Shown piece after piece: positions 16,721 through 64,000 of a stretch of 64,000 nt of DNA. This DNA is from Raillietiella orientalis (lineage: Eukaryota): contig JAYWIR010000024.1 of NCBI GenBank assembly GCA_036172245.1, forward strand, positions 2,790,001 to 2,854,000, read 5' to 3'. Positions within the stretch are counted from its first letter, which is position 1; every line of letters starts with the position of its first letter. The position numbers and the translations under genes are program-made. The notes under the pieces are model-generated. The model was not told where the DNA came from. It saw only the letters and a list, made by a program, of their open reading frames with translations, and did no database searches.

Positions 16721-16885
16721 TTGTGCCCGAAGAATCGAAGAGGAACGGTGTTCGATTGTTCGTCAGGAGCGGTTTCGGTGACGAACACCCACGAGCCGGC
16801 GAGTATCGTCTGCCGTGAGGGTTCACGTTTTCCTCGCGTTGCTGCTGCTCTTGTTCCTAGGGACGGACGGACGGAAGGGATTTTA

Positions 16886-20210: not shown

Positions 20211-20329
20211 GGTCCACGGCACCCGGGGTTCCCAGGCGGTCGCCCATCCAAGTACTGACCGGGCCCGACGCTGCTTAACTTTGCCGATCGAACGAGAGAC
20301 GGTGCTCTCAGCATGGTTTGGCCGTGAAC
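20211..20329 (-). rRNA. 5S ribosomal RNA (119 nt, animal-like)
   Basis: GTTCACGGCCAAACC..AGTTAAGC..GTACTTGGATGGGCGACCGCCTGGGAACCCCGGGTGCCGTGGAC. Helix I (GTTCACGGC/GCCGTGGAC) pairs fully and boxes A and C are intact. Confidence 0.97.
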
Positions 20330-21837: not shown

Positions 21838-21981
21838 AGCAGGTGGTCGTGTGGCCACGGCGAACGCGCGCAACACCTAGCGTCGCGGGGTTGGGATATC
21901 CACGAAAGATCGACGACGGATGGGTTTGGATTCCCCCCGCGAGAGGACTCGGGGAGGCTCCACGCCTGGGGTGTGCATTGG
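21838..21981 (+). mobile_element. Diverged tSINE head
   Basis: GTGGTCGTGTGG..GCGGGGTTGGGAT..GATCGACG..GGGTTTGGATTCCCCCCGCGAGA..GGGGTGTGCATTGG, colinear with the other heads. Confidence 0.6.
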
Positions 21982-24420
21982 TTGACCAGCCGCTACGACG
22001 GACGTCTGTTGTGAAGATAAACATAGAAAATAGTAGTGGTAGGGCTCTTGGCCTAATCACATTCAAAGGAAACGGAATTTGCCGAGGTGCCGGTACGCAG
22101 ACTGGCTAGGTATGCCTCAAGGCAACGAAGGGGGGGGGAACAAAAGGAAAACAAAATAAATGATAACAGATGAATACACGAAACTTCCCTTGGAAAGGTT
22201 CGGGAAGGGATCGCATCCCGTTGCGGACATCCTCTGCATCCTCTCAAGGATTCTGGCAAGTTCCATCCATACATTATTATCAAATGGGGCGGCGGCCGTC
22301 CCTTCGAAGTCCTCATGAAGAGATCCGTCCATTCGATGGCGTGTTCCTTCCGTTCTGGCATCTTCTTGCCGAGTTCCAGGTCGCCACTGTCCCGCGAAGA
22401 CAGAGACAACCGCTGAGAACGTGGCTGACGGCAGTGCAGCACGCGCGTCCCGTTGAACGGGCGCCGAGAATCGGCAGTGGCCACTTCGGAGTCGTCTTCC
22501 TGCGTTCCACACTCAACTTGGGTTCATGGCAGTGGAGGAGGACCCACGCATGGATCCCCCCCCCTCCCCAATCCTCCAAATCCGGAGAGGAGAAGTTTGA
22601 AAGGGAACCCAAGCCCGACCATTCCAACTCGAAGGGCAAAACACCCCATCTTTCTTCTCCCCATAACAGCCGTTCTTACAATCGACTTTGCCCTCTGCCC
22701 ATCGCTTTGAGTGCTCTCTGCAGCATCTCTTGATGTTGCGCTGATGCCGATGAAAACTCTGCTCCGCCGAAGCTCGGGAAAGCGAGCAGGCGATGGGGCA
22801 CACGGAAAACCTCTGAGTACTGCTCGAATTTTCCCGGAATCTCCGGTTGTGCTAGACGTGTTCGTTGCAGCCTCCAGAGCCGCTGGCATTCGCAACAAGG
22901 GCGTGACGGACCCACGCGGCAGTCCGTTGGTCATTCCCGGCAGATGGTCCTCGAAAAGGGCGGCAGTTCAAGCACGCGAATAACCTTCAAATGGAGCCGA
23001 AGCTCAGGGTGAAGCCGGAACACGTGCTGCTCCACGCTCCGGAGCGGTTGTGTGACCTCCGAAGCGAACCTCACGTTGCCCGTGGTAGAGCAGGAGGCGA
23101 GCTCTTGCTTCTTACCACGAGAAACGTGAGGTTCGCAGCGACGTCGAGAACGCTGGGGTGGCTGCGAACCCACGTGAGTTTTCCGCGCCATCCAGCGCTC
23201 TCGGATTCCTCCGAAGTGACTTGGCCGAGGTCGGCGCGTCGTCGGTGCAGAGGTTCTGGTGGTGAGTGGACACGAGGCGATGGAGCAGCATGGCCGCGGC
23301 GCTCCTGGACTGCGGCCAAGTTTCTGTTTGGCCGCAGCGCATTCCTTCCTCGCTTGCTCTATTACAAACACCACACAGACGGGCTGCCAGCACAGTGACC
23401 GCGGCAGTAAGCGTTTCGATGATTAACGCCATCGCCACATCCGAATGGATGCTTTCCTTTTATTTCGGAATGTCCGCGTACTGTAAAGGTGGAAAGGAAA
23501 ACAAAGAGATGGACTGACGCGGTTTCGCCCGCCTTTCCCGTTGGAGCTTCTGCAGAGCACACATACGTACGCTCTGTGACCTCCCACGTGTGTGGGAGGT
23601 CAGCCGAGCGGCAAGTGGAAATATCACCATCCAAGAAACTCACGTTTCCGCTTTCCTAGTGGGTGGAAAGCCCGACGGCTCTTTCAGCTCCTATTCAAAC
23701 AGTCCAAACTTCTTCGGGTCCAAATCTGGGTGGGAAACAGGGTCCGTCTGAGAATGACGTAACGAAGCATCAAGTTGACCTGCCTGCAGTGGTCTGCAAG
23801 GGTTTCCTGTGAAGCGAGAGATCTCTTTCGCTACGAGCATTCCGAAGGTAACGGAAGCATCAGCAAAGGAATGTAACGTCTCGGAGGGAGCTGGAAAGAT
23901 CAGAGCGACCCAGTTTACATCTTGAAGACCGCCTTTCATTTACTTTCCCGTGAGCTTCCTGGCGGCACGCCCTTCTATTCATCCCAGTGAATTTCACCTT
24001 TTGCGTTCGCTGCCTTGCCGGTGGTCTCTCAGAAAGCCGCCCACCATCGACCTCGAAAGCTCTGGAGCTAGGACTGCTTCTGAAGAAATGCAAGGGGGGA
24101 ATCTGCGGAAAGATGCAGGAGGAGCGGAAGTGTTTCACTTCCTCGATATAGGAGCACCGCCGAAAGGCTAAGCAGCCCATCCGCAGGGATCGCCGCTCGG
24201 ATGCCAAACCCAATCTGGCGCAGAGCCCTGCCGTCTGCTCCAACTTCCTCAGGGAAACCTCGCATCTTCCGGCCGCGGTGCGGTTTGGAGCACGGAGGAG
24301 CGCTCGCGGCAGGGTGCTGCTGTGTGAGATCGGCGGACCCGAGCTCGCAGCGTTGAAAGTCATCCGACTGGGATCCGTTTCCACTCGGGTGCGCACGCAG
24401 GTCTGCGGAGCTCTCTCCTG
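21982..24420 (-). pseudogene. LINE subfamily G, degenerate RT to 3' end, at site 1
   Basis: KGGLQDVNW (~KGDxxxxxNWRP), FTVRGHSEIKGKHP (~RGVRQGCP) and HAIEWTDLFMRTS (compare DAIHWAWIFLKGT). 3' UTR stem-loop at 22075-22130. Confidence 0.6.
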
Positions 24421-25159
24421 GCACGCCGCTCCTGCTCCCTGGTTGCGTTCCCGGAGCGAATGGGGTCGCTTTGACTTCCGGGATGGCGCACGTCGTGCTG
24501 GTCGAACCGCCCCAACTTTGATCATTTCGCCCGGCGATTCGGGATGGGCAGGTCGCACGCGCTCGCGTGGAATCCACTACGCGAGCTGGTGCGTCTCTCT
24601 CGCGAGACACCAGCGCATCCATTTCAGATATCTGGCACACCACCTGTGATTATCCTCAGGTGTCTCTCCTTTGAATCTGACCTTTCACGCGATGCGTGGT
24701 CAGGAAGCCCATCCCCGGCACTGAACGCGCCTCACTGTTCGGGTGCACAGAGTTCCTTTTTTTTTTTTCTTCTTCTTCGGAGTTCTTCACACGCACGGTG
24801 GTGTTTTGTGCGCGCGCGCGCGCGCGAGCTCGTGTGCCATTCACGCGCATGCGCTTTCGACGATTGCATTTTGCGCAAGCAGTCCTGTGCGTGCCCGCCA
24901 CGAATACCTGTCGAATGGGAATCCCTTTGAAACGCGCACAATGGATAAATCATCCACTCCGTGCGTGGACACGTGTTCGTGCGTAAGACGCATGCATCCT
25001 TTGCGTGGAACGCGGTCCTGAAGATGTGTCAACAGCTCTGACGTGACGCCGCTGCATTCACTACCATGCAATAAATTATTTACTAATTTTGTTTGACCGC
25101 GCGTGCTCTTGTTGCGGTCACGACGCAGGCAGCTCATCTGCTGCGTTTTGTAATCAGGG

Positions 25160-26169
25160 TCATCCTTTTGGGTTCTTCTGTGTCGCTCCTTTTCTTCCTG
25201 CTTTTTATTTTTGTAAATTTTTTTTTGAGGGTTTCCTTTTTTTTGAGGGGGGGGAGGGCAGGGGGGGCTGCTAAGTACTTAAGAAACGTTCGCCTAGGGG
25301 CTCATCGAGCTCCTTCACGCTGTCCCCTCCACCCGAGGTTACATGTGACTCTTCAAGTTATAGGAGGTATCCCTGGGAGGGACCACCCTATGAATCCAGA
25401 AAGGTTCCGGAGGAAGGGGTCCATTCCTTGCTTACTCCTGGTAAGCAACCTCGAAGGGAACACCCCCCGCCCTGGTTGTCTCCGATTTCCACCCGGACAC
25501 TCCTTGAAATTCAAAATAACCTCACATATTGTGTAGGACACTATTGTTACCACACTCAGTTTCTCCATGGACCTGCCAGTAGGCAGGCCGGAGGGGCTCA
25601 CCTCGGCAGGGGAGGGGAATGGGAGGAGACAAAAGGATAGCGTAAATAAAAATAAATAAAAAAATCTTTGGGAGGATCGGGGAGGGACCACTGTTCGCTG
25701 GAAGGAGTCCTCTGCATCCTTTCCAGGATTCCAGCTGGCTTCTTCAGAATAGGTCTCAAGGGGGACATCTGGCCGCCATCCGCAGAAAATGAACTGCGGA
25801 CTGGACGGCGTCCCTCCCGCTTCTTCCTCCGTCGGCTTCTCTCCAGGACGGCGCAGTCCCCTCTGCTGCTGAGGCGAACCCCGCCGGCCTGCCTGCCAGT
25901 TCGCGGCAGGTTCTTCTCTCAGTTGTAATTAACGTGGCAGGATCGAACGGCCTGCCACAGACGTTAATTTTTTATAAATAAACGTCCCGGCGTGACCGCG
26001 TGTCAACCAGTGCCGCACCCGACTAGGCCAACCGGCATCATCTTGCGGGGGGACTCGAAACCCACGACGCAACCCTCGTTCTCGGCGTCGATCCTCCACG
26101 CGGGGATTCGAACCCTCGACGCGCGTCTCCAAGCACGGACTCCTCAGCCACGCGGGCACCAACGCGGGC
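25160..26169 (-). mobile_element. Collapsed composite: tSINE head (26169-26007), LINE-A 3' end (25857-26006, +), LINE-C 3' part (25856-25484, -), tSINE distal body and tail (25483-25160)
   Basis: Same order and orientations as 43722-46022 with the centre deleted. Confidence 0.8.
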
Positions 26170-26339
26170 ACGAGGAATAGCGACCCATGTCAGTCACGCC
26201 TTCTTTTGTTTTCCGCTGTTCTCAGCGTCCGCTGCACGCGCAGAGGTTTCATCCTGTCGCCTTCATTCATCTTTTGTTGTTGAAAGAATAGGTGGAGGAG
26301 GGATGCGTGATTCCTCGCAGCAGAACAGCGTGAGGAGAG

Positions 26340-27420
26340 AGCATCGCAGCCCTCCCTGCAGACCCGAGTGGAAATTGGCCCAGCCGGGTGGCTTTCAGAG
26401 CGGCAAACTCGGGTCCGACGATCTCGGACAACAGCATCTTGCCGCGAGCACTGGAGTGCGCAAGTGGCGCAGCGGCCGGAGGACGCGAGGTGTCCCTGAG
26501 GAATTTTGTCTTCGGGAGGCTCGACGGGACGACGAGTCCTGCCCGAGAAGCCGAATGCCGTCGTCTCCCGAGCCGTGCAAGTGTCATCGATGGGGAACCG
26601 AAGGAGGAAAGGGGCTCTGGAGCAGATGGCAGGGCTCCGCGCCCGATTAGACTTTGCGTCCGGGCTCTCCCGTGCAGACGACCGTCGCTTTCCGACACGT
26701 GGGTGGTGGTAGTGGGGTGGTGGCTGCCAACCCTTGGTTCGGAAGTCGCCGGGCTGAAAGCCGGGCGTCCTGCCTAGCAGTCCCGGGTCAGCTGTGTCCT
26801 GCCGGGAGCTCGAAAAGCGTGCCCGGACCCAGACTCCCCTCCGGAAGAGAATCAATCCCGTGTCCTCGAGGGACGATCAACGAACGAGTGGGCAGGGGTG
26901 GGATGAGCCACCCCCTTTGCACTCGGCATGGTCCCCGAAGACCTGCGTCGGGCGGGGAGCAGACTGGGGTTCGTCCGCACACAATCGCCAAGAGGTTCTT
27001 CTGCACCTTGCATCCCAGATCGGAAGCCGCATCCCCCTCGCCCCTTCGCGTGCAGGTGACGGCCGCACCTGACCACGCCCTTCCTCTGGTTTGGCGGTCT
27101 CCGCTGCTCGGGTGCGTGTCAGGGAATCGCCGGAGAAGGACGACCGGTACACCTGGAGAAGTGACCGTTGCAGGTGTGTGGGCGGAGTAGAGGAGGAGGA
27201 AGAGGCGATCATCTGGCGCAGCCTTCCGCATCCGAGAAGGACGTGCACATCATCCCGCGCTCCTCACCGAAGCGCGGTGGCATTCCTTGTTCCCGGGAAG
27301 AGTCCAGCGTTCCAGCAACGTGCAAGAAGGACGGATCGGGAGGCGGGTGCAGCCCGGGAAGAAGGAAGAGGGGAGGAGGGAGGATATCTGCCTTCGGCCT
27401 TATCTGAGCAGCGGTGCCTC
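26340..27420 (+). pseudogene. LINE ORF2 linker remnant
   Basis: 26360-26460 is homologous to 24300-24395 (reverse complement). PGKSP motif near 27295 (~GKSPGxDG). Confidence 0.5.
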
Positions 27421-35649: not shown

Positions 35650-36360
35650 GTGCTTACCCTTGCACACGACCAACTCTTCGGGTCGAGCTCGATGACGGGG
35701 ACTTGCCCACGAAGAACAGCTCGTCCGATGGTAGACACCATCCCCGTCGCCCTCTTGAGACGGTCTGCAGCTCCCTATCAGACCGGCGCAAGATGGCGAT
35801 ACAAGGGGGGCGATTCAGACGGCCGGGATCCAAGAACCTCGCAGCCCGCCAGCGGCTCGGCAGCTCTTGGAAGAAAGCAGACTCTGGATCCGAGCGAGGC
35901 GCCGGATCTGGCAGCGGACTGAAGAGTCCGGGGAACACCGCCAGAGAACTTGCCGCGGCGATTCTTCGCGCGCGGTGGGCTTTCCCCGGAGCGACGACGT
36001 CCTCTCGCGCTATCGTGACGGCCCTCCTTCAGATGGAACTTCCTGCGCACAGCGACGGAAGGTCACCCGACTGACAGCCGCCTTAGTGAGGACCGCAGTG
36101 AAGTTCTTCCTGGCTGAGAGTGGAAGTGGCTACGGAGCTCACTTGCATCTCGCGGCGGCTGCGGAGGAGAAGGCGTCACCAACTGAAGACCCCTTCAGAT
36201 CCTTTTGCATTTTTTGACGGTCTCCCCGCTCCCGCTCCGGGCTTCCTGCGAGTTCCTCCCCGGAGAACTTCTGGTGGTTTGCTCTGGGAACTCTGTGTTC
36301 CCACGCTGTGTGTTTTTTTTTTTTTTTTTAATGAAATAAACGCCCGTGAGTAACCAGTTG
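35650..36360 (+). pseudogene. LINE 3' fragment with terminal AATAAA motif
   Basis: ELAAAILRARW-type C-terminus, T-rich UTR and AATAAACGCCCGTGAGTAACCAG at 36335-36357. Confidence 0.5.
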
Positions 36361-36844
36361 AAAAGCCGAGCGAAAGGAGACCTCTGACCCATCGACCAAC
36401 TCGTCAGATGTCTCTCTCGTCTCCGTGCAACGGAAGGGGACCGCCGTCTTACGTCACTGAAGTCACTGAGGAAGAAAGAGGAGGAGGAGGAAGAGGAGGA
36501 CCTGGAGGGAGGGAGGATGGGGGAGGAAGAAAAGAAAAGAGGTAATTGCCTTGCTTAATTGCTTGGTTTCGGAATGCGTTTCCCGTTTCCAACACGCAAA
36601 TTCTCCGTTCTTCTTCCGTCGGTAATTACTCGAGACAGTTGAGCTTTTCATACGGCACGACAACCGTCGAGCGCGGTAATTGTCTATTTTTCCATGAAGC
36701 TGCCTTCTTTTAAAATAATTACCATTAATTATCCCGAAGGATGTCGAAGGTTCCCATGATCTTTTACGAGACTTACCGGACAATGCGATGCAGCTTCCGA
36801 TTTGATTGATAACAAGCTCGGTGCATTCCACCGCTTGGGGTCAC

Positions 36845-39800: not shown

Positions 39801-42800
39801 CGCTCCGCGGTCCTCCATGGAGACGGCAAAGGCAGGTGAGTGGGTTCCAGCTTCATGGAGACCTCGCCTCCTCGCCTTCCAAGCGGAAGCCTCCGTCGGT
39901 GCCGACGAGGGCGAGAGAATGCACTCCTCGGTCCTGAATCTGAAAGAGGCGGTACCCACGGAGGGAAAGGGCAGCGGTCGAATCCTTTCTCTTCCGGCAG
40001 CTGACTTGCCGCGCGGGAAGGACATCCCTCCTGCTCGTGCACCTTGCGGAGAAATCATCCCTTCCGATTTCCCAACGTTTCCGTTGCCCGATGGTCACTC
40101 CGAAGGTCATGGAAGTGATCTCGCTGCTGAAAAAACTACCGGCAGTGCTCACGATGAAACCCACCAGCAACATGCAAAAGGCGTGCGAAAGGAAAGAGCC
40201 ACACCCTTCCTTTTTCACTCACGCAAGGGATCCAAGCCGTCGGTTGGCGCCGATCGCCATCGGCTCGTTGGGATCCTGGCGCCTTGAGAACAACGGTGCG
40301 TTGCAAGAGCTGGAGATTCCAAAGAACGTGCCCAGCGAACCAGTGGTGTCTTCCCGAATCCAGCAAGACTGAGTCGCCTAGGACACCCTCCAAACGGTGA
40401 CACGGAGACCTACCTGATGGAGGGAGTCCCTGGAAGAAGACCTCCGGACCTAATCAACGCCGAAGCCGGGTGCCGAAACCCAGACAGCAAGCAGACTCGG
40501 CCCGGCAGGGAAAAATCCTGTGTCGAGAGCAAGGTCGAGGGTCCGAATTGCAGCCGTGAACCCTTCCCTTAAAGGCCCCACCTCGAACATGAACGAAATA
40601 CTGCAGGTGGCTTCCTCAGCGTCCCTTCTCTTGAAACTTCTTCGACGATGCTTTTTGAGTGGACTTCAAAGGACTGCTGTGCGCTCTCTGGCTGCTGAAA
40701 GCAGGGAGATCTTCGGCTGGAAGCATCGTCTGTACAACAAATTGCGAGGAACGCCTTGGCGATGGCCCTGCTGCTCCCGGCGGACAACCCCACAGACGTG
40801 TTAAAGCCTTTAGGTCAGCGGCCAGCGCAGCGACGACCGCAACAACCCTCTGCTGACTCTGCGGCACGTTCGCGGCAGGAAGCTCCGACGGAAGGGCGCA
40901 ACTCGACGGGAGCACCGCCACCATGATGGCCTTCTTCTTGGAGAGGACAAAGAGACGGTCCCACCTAGTGGATTCGAGGGTGGGACTTGCCAGCATCCTG
41001 CACAGGATGCACGGGATGAAGAGGAGTCCAGCAGATCAGCGGTGACCTTTTCTTTGTCTTTCCCTCCGCATAAAAAAATGCCCATTTTGGGGGGTACTTT
41101 TTCCAAGAAGCGCTTTTCGCCGACAATTCATCTGGCTTCTCTCGGAAGAATTATTCAGACCCGTAAGACCTCATGTCCTAAACAACATGGGAAGCTACAG
41201 CTACGGCCCCAGCGTAACCGGTAGTCAAAGGAGCACCAGGTCTTTGGAGGGAGAACCAAACACCAAGGACACCAAGGTGGCGCAGTCTGGACACCTGGGA
41301 GGACCCCAGCGCACGACGTCCCGACTGGAGGGCACGTGGCTCAGATGACGAGTGACGAAGAACGTCCGAGCTTCTAGGATGGTGGCTACAGGTGACCCCG
41401 ACGGAGACCAGGGCGCCGTGCCAGCTGTTCCGAACCAAGAGAGGCCTCTGTGCAGGAACGAAGGGAGCAGCGAAACGGAGGCAGGCCGTACCGAAGAAGA
41501 TCTACGCATGCCCCCCTTGACCCTCCGCCCTCGAAGACGGCCACTTCTCTGTCTGCCAAGCACGCAGGAAATTTGTCCGAAACGAAGAAAGGACTCTTTG
41601 ACAGAGGAAGAATAGCTCTGGGGCCGGACCGTACTTCTTCTTCCATGGCGAAGTGGGACCTTTCCTGCACAGAGAGAAGATACACTCCCCTGATCGATTA
41701 GCAGTGATTATGGACCAGCGATTTTTAAAGAGAAGATCTGGAGGCTACCTTTCCTTCTCTCTGGAAGTGCATCAGGTGAAACCTCCAGGCAAACTCCTGC
41801 CCTCAGAAACTCAGTGGCAGGGAAACGAAACTCCTCTGGGATCCCCCGGAGAGGAAAGCACTTGAGATTGCTTCTGCAGTAGCTCCGTCGCAGGATAAAA
41901 GGGCATTCCTCTCTCGTCGAATGGAAGAGAATTTGATTTCCCTGGAGACCCGTGGTCCGTGCAATCTTCGGCGGAGAAGATGCCCAGGCGTAGGGATGGC
42001 CGAACGAATTTGCAGACCGTGCGTCTCCTGCTTGCCCTGTTTGCTCGACAGGGAGCTGCTGCCCCTGCTGACGGGCGTGTGGACCCGTTCCGGCCTTCCG
42101 TAAATCTTCCGGAGCTGCCCGGCGACGGAAAACTTACTCTTTGCGGACCTTGAGGGACGACCGTGCCGACGGAGCGACGCGCGCGTTCTGCTCCTCCTCC
42201 TCTCCAGAGCGTGTTCGCTCGCAAAAGTGTTGGCTGACTTGGAGGAAGAGAAAGGGAAGAAAGGCAAGCCGGGAAGGGGGGGGCGTTCGGTCTTTCCCCA
42301 CCTTTTTGACTTCGGGCGCCAGTGGCGGCGGTGGCTTTCCGCGCGTTGCCAGGCAGCGCCGGATCCTCTCGTTTCCAATCGTTGAAGGCAGGGAGGAGAA
42401 AGCAGGCGAAATTCCAATTAAGAGATGCAGTGCGGCGCGCGATCGGTGTGGTCTCCAAGCTCCGGCTGACCGGCGGAATGCATCCCGAGGATCACACAGC
42501 TTTCTCCTTCTCCGCGGCTTCGCAGACCTTCCCGATAACAAATCATGATGAATCCCAGTCCCAACAAATGAGTTTCAATAATTCATCAAGTAGACGACGA
42601 AACTTCAGCAAAAATCCGTTAGAAGATTTATGGTACTTTCTATAATTCCTAAAATAATAACCTGCGTTCTGGATCGTATCTCCTCGTGTTCTTCCGTGGT
42701 CTACGATTCCATCTCGAGATCTTTTTATCTGGAGCTTTCATCCCCAATCGAGAACAAGAGAAACCACAAATCTCTTCCCCATTTAAGCAACAGCACCCGC

Positions 42801-43877
42801 CCTATCGGGCAAGTCCGGCCTCACGCATCGACCGACGCGCGTTCTGGATGGAGCGCGAAATGCGTCCGGGGTGGACTTTGGTCGTCCCCGACCGAACGTT
42901 GCCAGCTTCCCGCGCGAAACGGGACGACGACCACGTGCATTTCTCGGGGGGGAGGAAACGGCGCTCCCTCTGCGTTTCATTCCAAAGGGGAAGGGGGAAG
43001 AAGGTCGTAAACCAGGGAATGGGGACGGACGCAGGTGCTTCTTCCCCTTCCCAAGCGCCGTGCGGAGGAACGCGTTTGGTCGCGCTCCTCCGCTGACGTG
43101 ACGCAAAAGTGGCGCCTCGACGCAGAGAAAGAGTCACTTGGCGAAATCTTGGCACGTTCGCAGCAGCCGCAAGGCGCTTCCGGAATATCCCCCTGCAGCA
43201 GCAGCTGCCTCGGATGATGATGATTCTCCAAACGCCTCGCTCTTTCAAAGCCAGAGAAGACCGGAGAAGCATCCCTCATTTCACTTCCGCATCCTCCTCT
43301 TCCTTCCTCTCTCCTCTCCGTAATGACATTCCAGATATGTGTGTGCATACACACACGCGCGCGCACACACATATGTATGTTTGTATTTGAGGCGAGGAAA
43401 GAACTTCAGTCGTTGCCCATGGAAACGATCCAATAGAACGGTTCCGCTTCATTGGGTGGTGAGCGCAAAAGAGCAGCGTGATTGACGTGCGATTGTCAAT
43501 CACCACTTTCCAGCTCTCCCTCCTCCTTTTTTTTTCTTTTTTTTTATCCCACATCAGGGATCTCTGCATGTCGCGCTCATGATGGCTGCCATTAGCGAAA
43601 ATCACTTCTTTGGGTTTGCGACCCAGGTCGGCGTTCACTTCCGGCGAACTGATCCCTGTCCATCCCGGTCGACCGACAGCAGGACAGGACTTTTGAGCGT
43701 GGAACGCGTGTGAAGAAGAAAGCCCGCCCTCGGCGGCCGCGTGGCTGCGGTCTCCGCACGTGTTACCTAATCGTTGCGGGTTCGGATCCCACCCGGGTGA
43801 GTGTCGTGGGTTTCAAGCCCCCCCTCCCCTGCATCCCGCAGGACGACGTTGGTTGGCCTATTCGGGCGCGGCACTGG

Positions 43878-44377
43878 TTGACGGTCGGTTACGCCGGGGC
43901 ATTTATTTATTAAAAATAAACACAGAGGTCAGTGGCAAGATGCGTGATCCTGCCACGTTACTTATAAATACGACGGAAGGAACTTGCAGGGATCTGGCAG
44001 GCAAGCCAGCGGGGTCTCCTCGGCAGCACAGGGGAAAGGGAGACAAACAAAAAGAAAAACATAAAACAAAAAATATACAAAAAAATGGGAGATTTGGGAA
44101 GGGATCACTGTGTGCTGTAGGGTGTCCTCTGCATCCTTGTAAGGATGCCCGCAAGTTCTTGTTTCAAGACTCCCAGATGGGATGACGCTGTCCTCATGAA
44201 GAGGACAGCAGAATAGATGGCGTCCCTGTTGTTTTGGCTTCCTCTGGCGTTACTGTTGCTGCTACATGCAGCCACGATCCCGCGTAGGCAGCAAAGTGCT
44301 GCTAGGGATGCGGCCTGCCGCGCAGGAAGAGGCTCTTTAAAACGTCTCTGGCGTTGTCTCCGGGGGCTTCCAAGGGT
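43878..44377 (-). pseudogene. LINE subfamily A, 5'-truncated (~0.5 kb)
   Basis: Colinear with 7215-7730. Perfect 11-bp TSD CGCGGCACTGG at 43867-43877 and 44378-44388. Confidence 0.85.
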
Positions 44378-44841
44378 CGCGGCACTGGATGTCCCCGGTG
44401 ATTGGAAGTATACCCTCTAGGGTCCTTCCAGGAATCAAGGAACACCGGGATTTTCCTCCGGTCGTGAAGGTGGGGTCGTCCATTCCCCTCGGGGGGACTC
44501 TCCACCGCGCAGCATACTTACCCGGCTTCGAGGTGTTCAATTGTGATCATGAAGCTGGCTGGTACCCCCCTCTGGGGTACCAACCAGTATCAACCTCCAG
44601 AGGGGGTTGCATATCAACCCCCTCTGGAGGTTGCATCTTCAGACTGTCAGCAGAGCTCTGCTCCCTTCGGGGAAGCGCCGTTCAGAGAAATCGGGAAGTA
44701 ACCCTTCGGGGTTCTCTTAAGAGGAGGAAAATAAGAGATGTTTCCCTGAAGGTTCCTTCGGAGAAGAAATGAGCAGTGGTTCCTCATACGGGGGGTCTCT
44801 CTGGAGAGCATAAGGAAGAGGTTCCCCTCGGAGGCAACCAG

Positions 44842-45762
44842 AGACTCGTCATCTGCACCCGCTGCTCACTGCGGAAGATCCTCGAGAATCCCAGCATGAG
44901 CGCGGAGGCAGAGCGGACCTTCTTCGAGGCGACGATGTTCTTTCCTGAGGGATGAGTGGATGCTGCGACCACGAGTGCCTTTTTACGAGAACTGAAACGC
45001 AGGGACGAGCTGCCTGGCATTTCTAGCGGAGCCTGGAGTGGCCCCCAGCTTTAAAGAACAGCAGCGCCCTCCCCCTGAGGCGGCAGGAGCCAGAACTTCT
45101 GCTGTTTCGCTGGAGTCTTCCCTGCAATGCACGCCGACACTACTGGATGCCGGGGAAGGCGAGTCCAGACTGTCGCAGGTCCAGGGAACGCGAATCCCCC
45201 TTCCCGCACCTGCTTGTGCGCTGTGCTGGCCTCCGGCCACTGTGGAAACGTTCCGGGACGACCTTCCAGATCCCGGATGGCACCCCCAGGGACTTTTGAC
45301 GGCTCCTCTTCATGCGGGACGCCCTGCAGCCAGCCGCAGCCGCAGCAGGTCTTTGCTGCCTACTCGGGATTGCGTCGTCCTGGAGAGAAGCCGACGGAGG
45401 AAGAAACGGGAGGGACGCCGTCCAGTCCGCAGTTCATTTTCTGCGGATGGCGGCTGGATGGCCTCCCTTGGGACCTATTCTGAAGGAGCCAGCTGGAATC
45501 CTGGAAAGGATGCGGAGGACTCCTTTCAGCGAACAGTGGTCCCTCCCCGACCCTCCCAAATATTTTTTATTTATTTTTATTTACCCTTTCCTTTTGTCTC
45601 CTCCCATCCCCCTCCGCTGCCGAGGTGAGCCCCTCCGGCCTGCCTACTGGCGACCCGCCAGGTCCATGGAGAGAATGAGTGTGGTAAGACCACGTGTCCT
45701 ACCACAATATGTGAGGTTATTTTGAATTTCAAGAAACGCCCTGGAGTGTCCGAGTGGAAATG
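44842..45762 (+). pseudogene. LINE subfamily C, 5'-truncated (~0.92 kb)
   Basis: CSLRKILENP (compare CTLREILKDP in LINE-A) and a zf-RVT region. TSD GGAGRCAACCAG at 44830-44841 and 45763-45774. Confidence 0.85.
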
Positions 45763-48199
45763 GGAGACAACCAGGGCGAGGATTCCTTACCAAGCGTAGG
45801 AGAAACGGACTCTTTCCTCCGGAACCTTTCTGGATTCATAGGGTGGTCCCCTCCCGGGATACCCCTTGTCTTGAAGCGTAATGTATACCTCCGGATAGCG
45901 TGGATAATGTCAAAGAGTTTCCTTGCCCCCTAGGCGAACGGTCTTTCAGTACTTGGCGAACCAAAAAAAAAAAGGATACCCGAAAAAAAGGTTGAAAGCG
46001 AACAGCAAAACAGATGAACCCAATCCATCGCTCATCTACTGATGCTATTACCACGGCACTACAGAAAAGGTTCTGAAGCAAGCTGCGGGGGGCACACGAA
46101 GCCAACTGCGAGCAAACGGAATCGGGATAAACTTCCAAAATGGCAGACGAGCTGGGAAATGCTAGATGAAGCCACAGTGATGTGGCCATGACGTGATGGG
46201 AGGGCAAGAATTTCGTGGAAAATTAGTGGAAGGTGGTAGTAAATGTTACTACGTGCGTATTGGAATCAGGGTGGGAGCGCTGAGTGGGAAAGTGGGGTGG
46301 GTACCACAGATATCATTCCAGTGAGTTGGATGATGGGATGCTGGCTGTCTGCTGATTCAGCTTCCCAGGATAGTGAATGCGAGTGGAAGTGGTAGGGTCT
46401 TCAAGTGTGCCGATCCAGAAGAAAATAATGCCGGAGGTCTCGGTCGGTCGGATGGGCAAGCAGACGGTGCCGTCTCGGGCAGTTGCCCGCCGGAAGGACC
46501 AGAAAGCGGGTGTTTCAGGTGAGCGCTCGGTGCGGCTTTGCCCCAGAAATTCCGGTGGGAGGTTCGATCTCGACGGGGCAGAATTTGCTACAGGGGTGGG
46601 CTTGTGGGAGGCGAATGTCGTCTTGGTCGCTGCCTCGGCTGCTGCATCAATCTGCCTATGCCTGCGAAACGGAAGGGAAGCTGCCCTGTGTCATCTCACC
46701 TCGAAAATATCTAGATTTATGCTCCAGGCATCCAATGCTTTCCGTGGGATGAGGAATCACTGCAGAGTGTTCCAGACGGGATCTTGAACGTCACCCTGGA
46801 GATCAGAGCGCGGAGCAGCCAGGGACAACTCGCCTCAAGGGCCGATAAATAGAAACCTTTCGTCGCCGAGGGGGGGGGGGACTCAGCAAGCGAACATGAA
46901 TGGTAAGAAGGAGCGGGGAGATGCACGTGTCTCCTCCCCCCCGCCCCCTGTTTTCGAAATCAGTTCCTTCATCGCAGATCCTCGCTGCGTCCTTCTTCGC
47001 CGATCCAATGTCCACCCGGCCCGAACCTCGATTTGGAAATCTCGCGCGGCTGCTCTCATACATTCGCAGCCGGCCAGCCCCTCCGCGACTATTGCTGCTG
47101 ATCTTGGCCGATCGGTCCCTCGCTTTCGTCCGGACCGGGGCAGCACCTGGGCGATGTCGATGTCTTCTGGAGGGGACCAACGAGGCGAAATCGGGAGTGG
47201 TGGTCGCCCGCATTCCCCCTCCCCTCCCTTCCCCACCATCGCAGATGTGTTTTCAAGTGACTCGAGTGGTATTTAAATACTGGGAGGCTCCCGCCGTGGG
47301 TGAACCACTCGAGCGCAGACGCGAGGATCGTGACCGGCGCACGCGTGACGCCGAGGGATCACGAACTCGGGTTCGCCCGAGCTGCTGCGAAGCTCACAGA
47401 AGAGGTCTTCCCCCGCGGAGCGCGAGACACGCAGATCCGACAAGGGAGGTGGACAGGGGGCGAAAGCAGAGAGCAATCATTCGGTAGAAACGTCGGCAAT
47501 ACGGCCAATTCTGCGCAGCACCCTCCTTTCAGGAAGGGAAAGGGGAGGGGAGGAAGAAGGGAAGGAGCCCCTGATCACGGAAGCGTTCTCGGGAAAGCAT
47601 GGCACGCGCGGCTCGGATCCCATCCCTCCGGGAACGCGAACATCTTCTGTTTTGTGCTCCGCTAGCCCAGGGGCTGCGGAGGGTGTTCTCTTCTCAACGC
47701 CCACCGTGACCCAAGTCAGATGGTCGGATGATGGGCGGCCTTTGTTTCGAAGTGGCGTTTCTCCTCCTCCCCATTGGAAAATTCTCCCGAGGAAGGGAAC
47801 AAAACGCGCGCGCACACGCAAAGGGAGACGGAAAACCTCCGAATGGACTGCCTGCCCCTCCTTCGCATCCCCGTCCCCGTCTGCCTGTTGCCCGCTTACC
47901 TGCCTGCTTGGTGCTGACAGGCGCAGACAGGAGAACACGCATCGATCAGGGCCAGCTGCTTAGGGAGATGGGAGGATGAAAACGGTTGCTTCGAGGGGGC
48001 GAGCCGGAACCTTGGTTACCGGCAACAAGAAGCGACATTTGCAAAAAAAAAAAAATCTGCCGTCGCGAGAACGGCAGGCCGAGAATCCCGAAATCGTTTC
48101 GGGAACGCCTCCCAGAGGGACGCAGTCCGAGTCTCGCAAACGGGAGAGCTCATCCGTCGTGGGGACTTGACTGTCCTCAACCAAAAGTTCCCCAGTGGG

Positions 48200-53129: not shown

Positions 53130-54400
53130 TAACCTCTTGACGCTCATCTCCGCTCGCTTCATAACGGGAACCTGGAAGAATCTCACGCCCAAAACGAGAT
53201 CACCTCTGCCTGCTTTCCGCTGGCACGGCACCTGGAAGCTGGCGGCGCCGGAATGGCTGTATGGAGGAGGAGGAAGAGAAGGAGGAGATGTTGTTGGCCT
53301 GAGGCAAGACAAACTGGCGTGGACCCATCGCTCCGTCGAGTACCAGAGGTTGGCGGCTAACAGCAAGTGGCAAGAAGTTTGGAGACATATGACTCCCGGA
53401 GCTTTCCTGAGCCTCCTCGAAAGTCAGCATCGAGCGGGAGCTTGATCTACCAGAGGCCCAGGGTTACCTTGCAAAGAATCCAAGAATTGAGACGAGGAGG
53501 ATACTAAAATTAGTACTCTAAGAGTACTAATTTTAGTATATGTACAGCCGAAGCGTGTACATATAGTGTACTAAGGTACATTGAGATGGTGACAGGAAAA
53601 TTCACTTACAGGACCCGAGAAGTGTGGAAAAAACACAATAACTTCGCGTGGTCCAGAGTGAACAAGCAAAACCTCCGAAGAATAATCATTGAAGAAGAAA
53701 AGGACACCAGTGCCCTCCAAGAAGCCTCCATCGCTACGGGAGCAACAGGATCAACCTGTTGGCGATCGGAACGAAGCTCTCAGGGAGTGATATACCGCCA
53801 GACTCCCAGGATAACCTCCTGATGTTTTATCACGGAGGAATCCTGAGCAGTTTTAAAATGAAGCACTTCACGGGAAGAAGAGAAGACGAGGACTGCAAGG
53901 CATGTGGGGACATCGATACGAGATTTCACGTCTTGACATGTCCCACATTGCATCACGACTGGCAAGCCCTGGAAAGGATTATAGGGCTGCCCACCAATTC
54001 AGTCATGGGAACTTTAGCAGGGATGTTCCAAGGAAATGGGAACGTTCACAACTATAATCCCATGATGAGGATGACCATAGCCCTCTTCATCACCGCCATC
54101 CTAGTGCGGTGGTGGAAGATGGAGACCTCCAAGACGGCCGTATCTCCAATGGAAATCCTGAAAGGGTTTATCCAGAAGGAGATAGGCATAAGAAATTGCG
54201 GAAGAGTGCAGGTCTGGACGTATCGATACATCCTAAAGAGGATTGAGGACAACGTCCGGACACAGGGGACACCCAATTTCCCATAATTGCAGAACCTTAG
54301 TGAAAACCCCAAGAAGGTGAATTCAAAGTGACTTTGGTGGTCTGATTGAGATAATAGAGTGAATGAACATGTAGTGTGAATATTAAGAAAATAAATTTAC
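53130..54400 (+). pseudogene. L1/Tx1-like ORF2 C-terminal fragment, distinct family
   Basis: FRWHG..EWLY..GGDVVG. ORF 53759-54286 has FYHGGI..DCKACGDIDTRFHVLTC. AATAAA at ~54389. Confidence 0.8.
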
Positions 54401-56849
54401 CCACTTCTTGTGGGATTGAGAAAATTGAACATCACCAGGAGGAGTACAAAAACCGAACACAGAGTAAAGATCCTCCAAGAGTCACGGGGATCAAGGAGAT
54501 CTACCGAGGTCTCCGGAGGCGGCCATGTGCAAAGCCCTCCCGTTCCTCAAAAACGAGCAGCATCAGAAAGCGAAACTGGCGTTTCCTGGTCCTGGGATTT
54601 CTCTCCGAAGCCCTGAAGACATGTCCAGGTCTCTTCAACGTAAAGCAGCCACCTCAGACACGTCGGATAGAAGCAGCAGGAAGGATAGTGAAAGGAGCGC
54701 GGGAAGGTAGGGTGGAAGGGAGGTAGAGGAACTGAAGAACACTGAACCAGCCCTGGTCAGGGTGTGCTCGTTCCACCCTCCCTCTGTGATGTGGCAGCGA
54801 CCACAGGGCGCCAGATGTCCCGGGAATCCCTCGCTCTCAACCGAGATTTTCGATCTCGTCTGAGAGTGCTCCAACTGCAAAGAGTCCATGCAGCCTGCAG
54901 CGAATTCTCCGACTGGTCACGCCGAAAGTGTGCGTCCGGGGAGAGCCGGAAGGGGGCAGAAGGCGGTCCGCAGAGGCCATCCGGAAAGGTAAGGGACCCT
55001 GGGAAGGGTGTCTGGAAAGGCTGGTGGGACACGCCCCTGGCTCTGCCGACCGCTCTTCGCGCCGTTCGAAATCCCAGTGGACCCGGGGGAAACCTCGGGC
55101 CGGATAATGCGGGGATAAGGAGTTTCCAGGATGCGTTGTCCTCCCGGAACTCGGGACGACGAAGAGGCGCAAGGACGGAGCAGGAAGAGGAGACAAGGGA
55201 AACACGGGAGCCCTGGGCAGCCGGAATGTTTCTGGAGCCACAACTCGGTACACAGCGTTCGTATCCTCATCCCCGATGAGGCTCTGCGCATCTTCTTCAG
55301 AAGGAGCGAGCAGCCTCTCTGTTGCGCCCAGAGGGCGACAGAAAGGCTGCTCGGTCTTTCCTGCTTTGGTGTCCATTCGGAAGACGCTACCCCTCGGATG
55401 GAGAGTGTGCCAGACAGGATTGCACTTGACCATTGTGGTCTTGGTTTGGCTTTCTCGGTTGCGCAGGCGTATCTTCCTAGGGCTGACCGACTGGTCTTCC
55501 GGGATTTTGCCTCCCGAGCGGACGGAAGCTTTGGTAAAAAAACAAAAAACCTTTCCGCGTAGACAGCACGTACATCAGAGTCGGGAGCGGCACTTTGATC
55601 AGAGTCGCGAAACGGGAACTGCAGATCGAACCTGGATCTGACGAGGACGTTGCTTCCTGGAGAACAGGCGGCGCCCTGAGAGCGCCGAGCAGTTCTTCCG
55701 CGGGTCGGAAGCACTGGGGCGATGGCGAGGTGCAGAGCGGCAGGAAGGTTCTGGCACCGAGATCGAACGCTGATGTACGGATCGGGATGCTCAAGTGAAG
55801 CTGTTTCCCTGACCCCACCGCGGAGGGGGCAGGAAGAAAAAATTAATCGGCGTTCGCGTCAGGGGCATGCGAGGAATGGGAGAAGCCAAAGAAGGAGACA
55901 CCGTCTTGGCGCAGGCGTAGCGAGGAGGCTGCAGCGTGGGACGAACGATGAGGCCATCAGGATTCGTTTCGAAGTCAGATTCTCAATCAGATCTGATACG
56001 TATCTGCATCAGATACGGAACTCGACGAGCGTGGACCGTGGGCGAGCAGACGCCCCTCGCTTTCCTATCTGCAGAGCTGGCACAGAGAGAGATCCGCGGG
56101 AACGAGGAGGAGCCGCACGGATGTTCAAATTCATCCCTCGCGACGTTTGCTCTTGGAGGCGGAAGGCACGATCCGGTAAACGGAGCACCGCGAAATCCTC
56201 TCCAAGAGCTCCGCACGGAGGAAGCAGAAGGGCATCGCACCGTGGTCGAAGGTGGACCGTCTTCAGCACTTCATCTTCCTCGAGATTGTCGTGTGGAGGC
56301 GGACTGGGCAAACTTCCATCAAGAGTCTCCTCGAATGGAGAAAGCGCTACCTCCGCACCCAGGAAAGGAGGAGAAGAGGAGGAGAAAGAGGAAGATGAAA
56401 GGAAAAAAGGCCGAGCTTCGATCTCGGAAAGGTTGAATCTGAGGTCGGCAGAGCACCGGTCCTGCTCGGGAGTGCTCGTCCCTTGAGCGCGCGCGTCGGC
56501 TACTTCCAGACGGAGGTCAGTCGTCCTTCGAGTGACACAATCTCCCTCGGGGTTCGTCCCGGAAAACGAAGAATCTCGTCTCCTTCCCGATTCTTGGCTA
56601 CGGGAGGTCAAGAATGTGCGCGCGGGATGTTCGTCTCGAGGACTCGACGCTCACCATCAAATGATGGAACGGCTCGTCTTCATCCGGCTCCAAGCGGTGC
56701 CGTTAGCAGCCGTAATTTGAGGGAAGTGTTGATGCTGGGATGTAACAGTGATGTAGAGACTGAGCAAACCTGAGTGGCACCGTTTTCTACGGTGCCGATA
56801 GCGCGCCCGGATGGCAGGAATGTCGAACGACCCATCAGCTGATGCCCAG

Positions 56850-59800
56850 CTTCTCCCTTGAAAGCTGTTTCGAAGATTTTTAAAATTTTTTACAAATTAT
56901 TCCCCAAATTATTGAACTGTGTTCGTGTTTGTGGGGCAAAATTTTCATCGCAACAATTGACCATTTTTCAAACCGCTTTTCTTGGGGGATGGGGGTCGCA
57001 CTGTTGTCTTCGCCTGTCTCTGAAGGTCCTCGCCTGCGCCTTTGGTTGCAGCTGCAGGCATGCCAACCTTGCAAGGGGCCAAGGTGAACGATGTTTCCGC
57101 AGATGCGCAAACGCGCCGTTCGAAAAAGTAATCGTTTCATTGGCTGCAGCATCTCGGAAGGAAAACCTTGGCGCAACTCCCTCGATCACCCTCAATATTG
57201 ACACTGGAGGTTCCTGCACAAATCCGTCAACAACGAACAGGACTATCTTGTGAACTGCCGCCTTTTATAGATGACTGACTGCTCCCTCCCGCGATGCCGG
57301 AACTGTTTGCACTGCTGGAGGAGTGAAAGTATCGATCCCCGCGATTAAATCATTTTTATTGCCTTCGGGGCTGCGTCCCTATTTATTTTTGGAGTTGGAG
57401 CTTCGTTGCGTTTTAGCCTGGAATGGAGAAATTGCTGAGAAGACGAGGAACTGCCGGGTCGTTAGTGGACACAGAAGCCGCTCGCAGTTTTCGAAGAAGA
57501 TTCAGGTTGGCTGCTCTTACGTTCATTCCCACCGCTTCCGTTTCTCCTTCGGCATTTCGTCCCCGCCCGTCCTGACCTATCTCCTGTTCTGACCAACACC
57601 GTTTACCTGGTTTTCCTCTTGGACTCATGCGCAACACGGACCTCAGTGCACGCAGCACACGAAAATGAAAGATCATCATCGTCTCCCCCCGCAAAGTCTT
57701 TCAGGAAGTTCTCGGTAATGACGAGGGTAGAACCCTAGCAAGCGATCTTTCGATGCTACACGGATGATGATGCTTGAAGCCGGCCCACCTCCAGCCTCGC
57801 CACATTTCGCAAGGCTCGAAGCGAAATAGTTTTCACTCGCTTGCCCTATGGGGTACGTTCATCTCCTTGTCGAGAGCAAACCTCGGGACAGACGGCAGCC
57901 CCTCAGGAATACATTCGGGAACGAAACCAACGCGTCTTCTCTTAGAATCCAACGGTGTCTTCTTAATTCTGTGCTAATTCACTTTGGCAAACTAGCCGTC
58001 AGCTAAAATGTGGCTAGCTGAACGGAGGTGATGTGTGCGTGACGTCACCCTACCCCACTACGTTCATATGCCTTCCTTCCGCCGTTGCATGCATGAGCTG
58101 GATTCTCCTATCAGCAGCATGCAGTTTCGAAACTGGAGCCCTCTGGAAACCTCGGTGCCCTGTGCGGTCAAGATGGTATTCGGTTTCAACAAGTACGGAT
58201 GTAGTAACCTGATGCTGCGTTGCCAAGCCAGCTCAGAATGTCTTGAGGTGATCCGTTGTTACGGCTCCTCAGGCCGATCTCCGCTCACCTTTCAGTGTGA
58301 GGAAACGTTTACTTGCCGAGTAAACAGATCTGCTTCGTTCTTTCGGGAACCCTGCGGCTGCATCTCACTGCGTTGTCAGGGAGACGGCCATGGATAACTT
58401 TCCTGTCTCCATGCACCATGGGAAACCGCCGAATCTCTCGTATCGAACATTAGTGACGCTGATCACCATCGATTTTTCTGGTTTGAGCTTTTCTGTCACC
58501 ACTCTTCAAGACTGCTTGTTTCAGCAGATGAATCCCACTCGATTGAAGTGACTCCTGAAAAACGGGAACCGAGCTGAAATGCTGGATGGTTTCTGCCATT
58601 AGAAAGGGCAGAGGCAGAGTTCAGGAAGGCAGTGAACTATCTGTTCGCACCTGCGTTTTACGAATAATGTGCCGGAGGGTATTACTGATGACTAGACATG
58701 GTACTCTCCATGATTTCCACTGTCTGGATGTCCTTTCCATCACATCCCCCCACCGAAGGTTTCTTTATCTCGGCCGGTGGCGTCAGCCTGTGCCTCCAGG
58801 ACACTTCCCTAGAGCTGAGCATCTTGGATGCCTCATCTCCCTCATGTTTTCCATCTACCGCTTTGGGAGCGTCCGTTCTCTTGGAACGTGGTGGCTTCCA
58901 TGATCTTGCGATCCTAGGGGATTTTACGAAGGTCTCTCTGGAGAACGCTGGTACTCCTTTGACATCAGAGAGGAGTGCTTGTTATCCTTCCTTCGCCTTG
59001 CCTCCTCAAGTGCTTCAGCAGGAGATTGGCTGATGTCCACTATCATCACGCTCTCGTCTCCATGGAGCACCAACTGCATTCGCGGTTTGGAATCTGTTCC
59101 AGGAATGCTCTGAGGTCATCAGCTCCCGCTTTTCTTGGGGAACCCTCCTAGTCCGGGCTACCGACTCCTCCTCCTGCATCTCAAAAAGAGGGGCAATATT
59201 GCAACCGTGAGCACTCTGGAGATCATCTGGAAGCAGCTTCCGTTTCTCCTTCAACATTTTGATCGTTGGACTGTATGCAAAGGGTATTACTGATGGCTAG
59301 ACATGGTACTCTCCATGATTTCCACTGTCTGGATGTCCTCTCCATCTAGCCCTGCAAGCCAGTTCAACAACCTGATGGCGTCGCCCAGCATCCAACATGG
59401 CCCGTGCACCTACTGAACGCGTCGTCTAGGGCATCCTCGGAACCACCAAGAGCAGACCTACCGCGTCGAGTCTGAAGAAGAAGCCCATAAAAACTCCAGA
59501 ACTGTGCAGCGCCGAAACACAAGCAAGCAGGCGTGGCTCAGCAGCACCGAAGCCTTCGTTGCCGTGCGAAAGACTGAGGGTTCGAACCGGGGAGGTGAGA
59601 ATGAGCAACTCTGAGCTCTTAAACAGGAGTCTCCTCATCCTTAAACACCCCCTTCGGACCAGCCCTTTGTCCATAATGGAGAACCCTAGGAAACGGCGCA
59701 GGCTGTAGAAAAAAAAGAAACAGCCCCCCTCCCAAACATTTACTTATGCGTGCCCCAATCTTTTTCAGAATCCTGCTGAAGGTGTGTCTACTGTCAGCAG

Positions 59801-62900: not shown

Positions 62901-62920
62901 GCGGACCCCGATGATTAGCA

Positions 62921-63720
62921 CCAGGTTATGCCGGGGGCGTTTATTACATGGAGGAATAAAAATATACCTGTGTAAAAATATACCTGCACGCAATGGACCT
63001 TCCGAAGAACGGTTCGCAGACCGGCGACATCCGCTTCGGCAGCGTGGGGGAAGGGGAAACAAAAACACACCAAAAAAAGAAACACACGAAAAAGGGGAGG
63101 GGAAATTATACACGGGGAGGGGGGGATCAAAGAAGGGATCACGGTACGCTGCCAGGCGTTCTCCGCGTCCTCCTCAGAATGCTGGCAAGTTCCGTCCGTG
63201 TAGCGCACAGGTGGGGCCATCTAGGGGTGCCCTTCAGGAAGATCCATGCCCAGTGGATGGCATCCCTGCCATTTCGGTCTCTTCTTCTGGCGTTCCAGAC
63301 CGCTGCAATCCCGCGGAGGCAGGAGGAAGAAACTGCGAGGGACGTGGCCGGCTGCAGTGCAGCACCACGCACGAAGAGGCGTTTCAAAATGTCCCTGGGG
63401 CTGCATGCCCCCGGGGTCCCTAGGATTGTCTCGAGGAGATTCCAAAGTGGTCGGAAGGCAGCACAGTCCAACAGCAGGTGCGAGGGGTTTACTTCCTCCC
63501 GCACCTGCTGCACTGAGCATCCACGTGTCCAGTGGCGAAGGCGCTCTTTGCACTGCATTCCCCCATGCACCACCAGCAACATCAACTCCTGCCACTTGCG
63601 GAGGAGGGTGCCAGTTTCCGGCGCGCTGGAGGCCACTTCGCCTCCTCTGGAGGGATGCCGGGCAGCTCTCCCTTGGGGTGGGACACTCGAAATCGCAGAG
63701 CCCGTCACCTCCCGAGTTGT
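62921..63720 (-). pseudogene. LINE subfamily D 3' fragment
   Basis: ORF 63139-63708: KWQELMLLVVHGGMQC..HLLLDCAAFRPLW..AVWNARR. Terminal motif at 62921-62945. Confidence 0.85.
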
Positions 63721-63879
63721 CCACGCCCCCAGAAAGTTTCCTCTTTGCTGCTATGCATCACGTCACTTCCCACTTTGCCGGGATTACGCTGTCCCTTGCG
63801 GCCCTTAGGGAAGGCAGCACTAAGGCAAGGGGAGGGGGGTAGACGAGGCCCATCCCTTCTGGAGCTTAGGATGATGGAA

Positions 63880-64000
63880 ATCCTTTTTTAGGGTTCTTCT
63901 GTTTCTCTGCTTTCCTTTCAGCTTTTTTTTTTTTTTTTTTCGAGGGTTTCTTTGTTTGGTTCTGCAAGTGCTGAAGAACTGTTCGCCTAGGAGCTCACAA
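63880..64000 (-). mobile_element. tSINE A-rich tail (continues beyond the window)
   Basis: GGGTTCTTCTGT..(T)n CGAGGGTTTC..AAGTGCTGAAGAACTGTTCGCCTAGG matches 25165-25300 and 45930-46022 (reverse complement). Confidence 0.75.

Follow-up and report, generated by a model that had tools for sequence, protein, structure and literature searches.

A dispersed, SINE-like repeat as a probable integration target of several related LINE lineages in a 64-kb stretch of Raillietiella orientalis DNA

The subject of this study is a 64,000-nucleotide stretch of Raillietiella orientalis DNA (GenBank assembly GCA_036172245.1, contig JAYWIR010000024.1, positions 2,790,001 to 2,854,000 of the forward strand), hereafter the window, to which all results refer. 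It holds copies of an ~830-bp repeat that are interrupted by what appear to be fragments of long interspersed nuclear elements (LINEs, i.e. retrotransposons lacking long terminal repeats, LTRs). The insertions occupy fixed positions in fixed orientations, carry duplications and are truncated to different extents, while the same sites are empty in other copies and the LINEs are younger than their hosts. We consider it probable that the repeat is a preferred integration target of several related LINE lineages, each with its own short site. Sequence-specific integration into a mobile-looking repeat partitioned by LINE lineages had been proposed by an earlier, sequence-only reading of the window (the original prediction), and within the window it is supported.

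Insertion sites in the repeat

The repeat was delimited by a sensitive self-comparison together with alignments and an nhmmer profile. It is non-coding and dispersed, measures ~830 bp instead of the 0.9 kb first given, and is present in ~11 whole or partial copies in both orientations, covering 4119 bp or 6.4% of the window. Its 5′ end is sharp, with the common start GCCCGCG(T)TGGCGGCCGCGTGG, i.e. GCCCGCG(T)TGG, and its 3′ end is A-rich, with ...TACTTGGCGAACC and then runs of A that enclose a GGAAACCCTCG-like insert. The copies are diverged (68-85% identity over stretches of at least 100 bp) and carry no sign of function, and alignments showed that their upstream and downstream flanks are unrelated.

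LINE fragments were found at three positions of this repeat. Site 1, at ~position 161, is filled in 5 of the 7 copies holding it, always in antisense (5/5). Site 2, at ~position 615, is filled in 3 of 7 copies, always in sense (3/3), and site 3, at ~position 90, holds a single LINE in sense (1/1) among the six copies keeping this region; c43 is without it. All three positions had been described as reproducible, which stands for sites 1 and 2; site 3, seen once, is not reproducible within the window. The three target sequences have no visible similarity to each other. The existence of empty copies carrying the uninterrupted target was confirmed for every site: site 1 is empty in c3 and c19, site 2 in c0, c3, c7 and c19, and site 3 in five heads. 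The copies are as follows.

241-543, minus strand: c0, 3′ half only, site 2 empty, A-rich terminus (nhmmer and alignment)
3177-3799, plus strand: c3, uninterrupted at sites 1, 2 and 3, tail truncated (nhmmer E 7.5e-129, profile positions 1-576)
6295-6370, plus strand: c6, tail fragment
7043-8949, plus strand: c7, head 7043-7215, L7 7216-8454, remainder 8455-8949 with site 2 empty
from 14134 (entry 14134-15000), plus strand: c14, head 14134-14293, then L14 from ~14288
16721-15620, minus strand: c15, middle 16721-16451, L15 16450-15773, tail 15772-15620
20201-18886, minus strand: c19, head start 20201-20128, L19 20127-19248, remainder 19247-18886 with sites 1 and 2 empty
from 21830 (entry 21830-22472), plus strand: c22, head 21830-21982, then divergent L22 (minus strand)
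26186-25222, minus strand: c25, head 26186-26006, L25b 26005-25857, L25a 25860-25485, tail 25484-25222
43718-45990, plus strand: c43, hosting both L43 (site 1) and L45 (site 2)
43718-43878, plus strand: c43 head, aligning with six other heads (nhmmer E 2.1e-30), with the left site-1 duplication at 43864-43878
44375-44843, plus strand: c43 middle (nhmmer E 7.4e-80), with the right site-1 duplication at 44375-44389 and the left site-2 duplication at 44828-44843
45761-45990, plus strand: c43 tail, with the right site-2 duplication at 45761-45776, ending ...GCGAACC A11 GGATACCCG A7
63991-63891, minus strand: c63, tail only

The nine fragments inserted into these copies are listed below; clades A and C refer to the trees described in the next section.

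43879-44374, minus strand: L43, 496 bp, site 1, clade A, 3′ end ...GTCAA at 43879
7216-8454, minus strand: L7, 1239 bp, site 1, clade A, open reading frame (ORF) 7306-8115 (minus strand) with CxxCx8Hx4C at 7762-7812
from ~14288, minus strand: L14, site 1, clade A
26005-25857, antisense to c25: L25b, site 1, clade A
from 21983, minus strand: L22, site 1, divergent
44844-45760, plus strand: L45, 917 bp, site 2, clade C, ORF2 end with a decayed zinc knuckle at 45147-45299 and a 3′ untranslated region (UTR) ending ...GTGGAAA
16450-15773, minus strand: L15, 678 bp, site 2, sense, clade C
25860-25485, minus strand: L25a, site 2, sense, clade C
20127-19248, minus strand: L19, 880 bp, site 3, sense

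All nine junctions of the original prediction are present, within 0-15 bp of where it had placed them. The LINE 3′ ends lie at 7216, ~14288-14294 (a few junction bases being deleted), 21983, 26005 and 43879 for site 1, at 15773, 25485 and 45760 for site 2, and at 19248 for site 3. Both junctions are kept in five insertions, and all five show the predicted duplications, 10-16 bp in length:

L43: 43864-43878 / 44375-44389, CCAGTGCCGCGACC / CCAGTGCCGCGCCC, 13/14 bases
L7: ~11/14 bases, with an indel
L45: 44828-44843 / 45761-45776, TCGGAGGCAACCAGAG / TGGGAGACAACCAGGG, 13/16 bases
L15: TTGGAGACAACCAG / TCGGGGCCAACCAA, 10/14 bases
L19: AAAGGATTGC / AAAGGATCGC, 9/10 bases

The claim of differing 5′ truncation was likewise confirmed, the lengths of these insertions being 496 bp for L43, 1239 bp for L7, 917 bp for L45, 678 bp for L15 and 880 bp for L19. 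We rejected a reading of 43879-45760 as one element with long inverted ends: its arms are separate LINE fragments with their own duplications, and target sequence lies between them.

Besides CCCTTCGG-type short repeats, hairpins occur in the middle of c43, which aligns with 8469-8800, 3369-3680 and 16451-16721; the tail of c43 aligns with 25215-25484(-), 18886-19075(-), 241-480(-), 8800-8948, 15620-15756(-) and 63891-63991(-). None of the other copies has the two adjacent hairpins found in this middle (44550-44633; 19-nt arms, 100% and 84% complementary). Searches for repeat sequence downstream of L14 and L22, and for the heads of c15 and c0, found none. In c25, L25a and L25b abut with a four-base overlap (GGGA) and the repeat middle is missing, which is read as a later internal deletion; twin priming was rejected by reasoning, since both fragments carry 3′ termini. 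The region with c25 is flanked by inverted repeats of ~190 bp and 76% (24242-24436 / 26319-26506). The empty copy c3 is bracketed by a 110-bp direct repeat, ~70% identical and with a period of ~700 bp (3097-3212 and 3796-3903), which includes the first head bases, suggesting a local tandem duplication.

Lineages and independence of the inserted LINE fragments

All inserted segments align with one another and consist of an ORF end, a ~450-bp 3′ UTR and a common terminus ...CCCGGNGTGACCG..GTGNNAA without poly(A). A LINE origin of these segments is suggested by their common 3′ end, variable 5′ truncation and target-site duplications, by the lack of LTRs or terminal inverted repeats, and by a motif in the end of ORF2. 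This motif, CxxCx8Hx4C followed by LxPLW, reads CATCGEEESFPHLLVDC in L7 and CRRCRERESPFTHFLAGC in L15, and occurs in decayed form in L45 and in L63, a fragment outside the repeat. A phmmer search of 1.84 billion representatives at E<=0.001 gave three weak matches, namely a 157-aa protein of the zf-RVT family (PF13966 of Pfam, 'zinc-binding in reverse transcriptase'; E 9.6e-4) and two low-complexity repeat proteins, and a search for longer homologous proteins of the L7 ORF found none. Of the 30 ESM Atlas neighbours, 26 came from the zf-RVT set, with a score of 0.96; this is a lead only and not a test. The Pfam match of the motif to zf-RVT (E 0.018) likewise speaks for a LINE, though it stays below the cut-off. 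RNAalifold placed a short hairpin of weak or negligible fold energy ~50-80 nt before the LINE 3′ end, e.g. at 43915-43945 (minus strand) and 45680-45710 (plus strand); between clades A and C it differs by one compensated CG-to-UA pair (GTGGCA...TGCCAC vs. GTGGTA...TACCAC). Metagenome matches to the 19-base LINE-C terminus, at two loci with a GC of 35% and 48% and no other similarity to the window, were rejected as chance.

LINE 3′ regions were placed in maximum-likelihood trees. Clade A (L7, L14, L43 and L25b; support 96/95) was found at site 1 in 4/4 cases and clade C (L15, L25a and L45; support 100/100) at site 2 in 3/3 cases, so all seven members of the two clades sit at their own site and in their own orientation. 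The remaining LINE copies form long single branches. The proposed partition of subfamilies among sites is thus borne out within the window. L43 is 80-87% identical to L7, L14 and L25b, and over the last 370 bp L45 is 98% identical to L15 and 93% to L25a. L22 shares the site-1 junction (...CATTGG on one side and TTGAC on the other) although its identity with L7, L14 and L43 is no higher than 65-68% over 190-255 bp. Common to lineages so far apart, this specificity would be of long standing.

The same pattern could in principle come from one ancestral composite of repeat and LINE whose copies arose through segmental duplication or gene conversion, with no site-specific integration. In its favour, four of the nine insertions show a 3′ junction only, the site-1 LINEs and their host heads are similarly diverged, and the first 26 kb is where the copies cluster. 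Nevertheless we regard it as very improbable. The truncations differ both at site 1 (496 vs. 1239 bp) and at site 2 (917 vs. 678 bp), and each insertion has its own duplication, indicative of independent insertions. At site 2 the clade C LINEs are 93-98% identical (~350 bp), whereas the repeat copies around them show identities of 77% (180 bp) and 81% (109 bp). The LINEs therefore arrived after the hosts had diverged, and the gap excludes copying of one composite at this site. The existence of empty copies and the presence of the divergent L22 at exactly the same site-1 position speak against it as well. A single duplicated composite, the alternative that the original prediction had itself set out, is contradicted within the window by the different 5′ breakpoints, the separate duplications and the greater divergence of the site-2 hosts.

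LINE-like 3′ ends in the window were counted by profile search, and 9 of 14 lie inside the repeat, which makes up 6.4% of the sequence (binomial P = 2.8e-8). The original prediction had asked where such ends fall on the repeat genome-wide; mapped within the window, the ends of clades A and C all fall inside the repeat (7/7), and of the total 5 of 14 lie outside, a result against strict specificity. The five are the following.

62918-63743, minus strand: L63, ~130 bp from the c63 tail, divergent
40748-41227, plus strand: L40, divergent
~36165-36365, plus strand: L36, divergent
50463-~50660, minus strand: L50, divergent
16883-17637, minus strand: L17, 160 bp from the c15 middle, divergent

Their flanks have no obvious common motif. 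L17 (3′ end ~16883) was tried as a second site-3 case and rejected, its 160-bp flank being not significantly head-like (26-164 of 200 shuffles reach the score). An internal LINE fragment was also seen at 1018-1153.

Several points weigh against preferred integration into the repeat. First, L63, L40, L36, L50 and L17 end outside any recognisable target. Second, L14, L22, L25a and L25b, i.e. 4 of the 9 insertions in the repeat, keep only their 3′ junction. Third, identity is 80-87% among the site-1 LINEs and 74-84% among the heads that host them, so that an age difference is scarcely visible and independence at site 1 is carried by L7 and L43 only. Fourth, the ORF2-end motif matches zf-RVT at E 0.018 and 16.2 bits, under the cut-off of 27.5, and no reverse transcriptase or endonuclease (APE) domain was found in the ORFs of the window (Pfam at E<=0.001, 252 frames); as every copy is 5′-truncated to at most 1239 bp, such a domain may lie beyond the preserved part. 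The assignment to L1/Tx1 made in the original prediction is not supported by this sub-threshold signal, the sole one obtained. Fifth, target-site duplications around the repeat itself were not recoverable by flank comparison of the window copies, so that its mobility is judged from its ends and dispersal. Finally, the data come from one 64-kb window, from which we infer that the pattern holds genome-wide.

Nature of the target repeat

Judged from its sequence, the repeat looks like an old, dispersed, non-coding, poly(A)-ended retroposon resembling a short interspersed nuclear element (SINE). Its defined 5′ end, A-rich 3′ end and scattered copies are features of short non-coding retroposons. 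At ~830 bp it exceeds the length of most SINEs. The tRNA-derived head of the original prediction was not found by any of three methods: ARAGORN at default settings called no tRNA gene in the window, Rfam at E<=10 gave no tRNA in scans of 43500-46200, of 7020-7230 and of the entire window, and RNAalifold on seven heads gave no cloverleaf. With relaxed settings ARAGORN matched the heads, but also 320 places in the window, which makes the result uninformative. A B-box-like GGTTCGAATCC is exact in 2 of the 7 heads, and the motif GGTTCGANNCC has three matches in the window vs. 0.9 expected, with at least three reached in 6 of 100 shuffles.

A second view of the target is that it represents a decayed multicopy unit tied to small-RNA genes, e.g. 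a 5S rDNA spacer. The LINEs would then be specialists of RNA-gene arrays like Mutsu (5S rDNA) and Dewa (tRNA arrays), which Kojima and Fujiwara reportedly described in 2004 from small-RNA gene arrays. At Rfam gathering thresholds the window holds a single 5S rRNA gene, full-length, at 20211-20329 on the minus strand (96.2 bits); it is presumably unlike the 5S sequence of vertebrates. The start of c19 lies 1-6 bp past this gene and its TTTTT terminator, c3 is flanked by the 110-bp direct repeat with its period of ~700 bp, and ~11 copies lie within 64 kb, all of which would suit such a unit. However, of the seven heads just one is preceded by the 5S gene, no alignment with 5S was obtained for the sequence upstream of the remaining six, and Rfam at E<=10 still finds the single 5S gene in the window. 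The copies also occur in both orientations with unrelated sequence between them, and have a sharp 5′ start and an A-rich 3′ end. We therefore hold the 5S-unit origin to be unlikely. The stricter version, in which all heads follow a decayed 5S gene, was ruled out by the same Rfam search and the upstream flank alignments.

The original prediction had further suggested that the LINEs mobilise the repeat as well and so create their own safe harbour, which we find highly doubtful. LINEs and repeat co-occur in the window, and there is a precedent in SINEU, which shares targets with Tx1-Mar and is thought to be mobilised by it, as stated in the part of Kojima 2015 (PMC4494074) cited here. Against this, repeat and LINEs showed no similarity in the sensitive self-comparison, and the repeat ends in poly(A), whereas in the LINEs a conserved 3′ UTR is followed by the terminus ...GTGNNAA. 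Such different 3′ ends indicate a different partner for the repeat.

The surrounding sequence is repeat-rich, with a G+C content of 48-63% across the window. At E<=0.001 none of the 252 stop-free frames of at least 110 aa in the whole window matched any Pfam family, and the longest frames, found on both strands in GC-rich stretches, resemble random GC-rich translation; on these grounds the window appears gene-poor. A second, unrelated repeat family was seen at 5103-5210 and 6371-6497 (85% over ~65 bp, with a common CCCGCATTTCATCCCAGTA). Its copy at 6371-6497 adjoins the tail fragment c6 at ~6370, and may thus be another element inserted into the target repeat. Other structures are not related to the repeat or the LINEs: two short, near-perfect palindromes (53501-53539 and 55300-55360; 97% and 79%), a 66-bp direct repeat pair of 97% (58676-58741 / 59281-59346) and a weak 230-bp palindrome (22985-23216).

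Integration model and comparison with known systems

With the repeat as a preferred integration target, each lineage would recognise its own short sequence in it and, with its orientation fixed, integrate through target-primed reverse transcription. The sequence ~161 bp from the 5′ end would serve clade A and its divergent relative L22, in antisense, the one at ~615 bp clade C, in sense, and the one at ~90 bp a further lineage, that of L19, in sense. A first nick would fall on the left margin of the duplicated stretch, reverse transcription would start from the non-poly(A) 3′ end (...GTGNNAA) following the conserved 3′ UTR, and a second nick would be made 10-16 bp downstream, most copies ending up 5′-truncated. 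We infer that the specificity resides in the ORF2 endonuclease. A broader proposal is put forward only tentatively: three or more related LINE lineages would form a guild with a single SINE-like, poly(A)-ended retroposon reserved as their landing pad, each at a site of its own, and the target would renew itself by retroposition. In a host outside the animals, such a guild would carry TE-targeted LINE integration beyond the animal Tx1 clade.

Site-specific LINEs are investigated as natural models of harmless targeted DNA integration and show how endonuclease specificity evolves. At this locus, three 10-16-bp target sites are delimited within a single short repeat, and LINE lineages that can be told apart are paired with them. 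Should full-length elements occur elsewhere in the genome, they would make a compact set in which to compare changes of specificity between near relatives.

The closest counterpart is the set of crocodilian Tx1-Mar families which, in the part of Kojima 2015 (PMC4494074) cited here, are split between antisense and sense sites in the DNA transposon Mariner-N4_AMi. The hot regions lie at ~position 240 (opposite direction) and ~830 (same direction) and have mutually dissimilar sequences; the families differ in the region they prefer, and 5′-truncated copies serve as evidence of independent insertion. As there, related LINE families each use their own site and orientation within one mobile element and leave truncated, independent insertions. 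The arrangement, of which the original prediction knew no description, is not undescribed: the same architecture is reported for Mariner-N4_AMi. In comparison with the Tx1-Mar account of that source, a poly(A)-ended retroposon takes the place of the DNA transposon as the target, the third site was seen once, the duplicated sequences differ and no co-targeted SINE was seen; the LINE here is known from fragments without reverse transcriptase, and its clade is not comparable.

Targeting of one transposable element by another is also summarised in PMC4494074 for Xenopus Tx1 (Tx1L), which inserts into the non-autonomous transposon Tx1D, for Tx1-8_Crp and Tx1-4_AMi, which target LTR retrotransposons, and for Tx1-9_AMi, which targets Harbinger transposons. 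The present case resembles these in that the specific target of a LINE is another transposable element. Those LINEs are of the APE type and, as summarised in that paper, are each one family with one site, in targets that are not SINE-like. Keno is cited as a specific LINE of small-RNA gene arrays (PMC4494074, PMC4640811). Sequence-specific insertion is a trait of many Tx1 families, though not one that defines the clade, and was found here for clades A and C in 7/7 cases. R1, R2 and other R elements have rDNA targets. Like the R elements, Keno, Mutsu and Dewa, the LINEs of the window comprise several lineages that use one multicopy target at different fixed positions; the targets of the former, however, are host genes whose uniformity is maintained through selection or concerted evolution, whereas here the copies are diverged, to 70-84% identity. 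No description of a SINE-like element as a dedicated LINE target was found among the papers listed by literature searches, judged largely from abstracts. The locus opens no new theme; it extends a known one, that of LINEs hiding inside other transposons, to a retroposon target.

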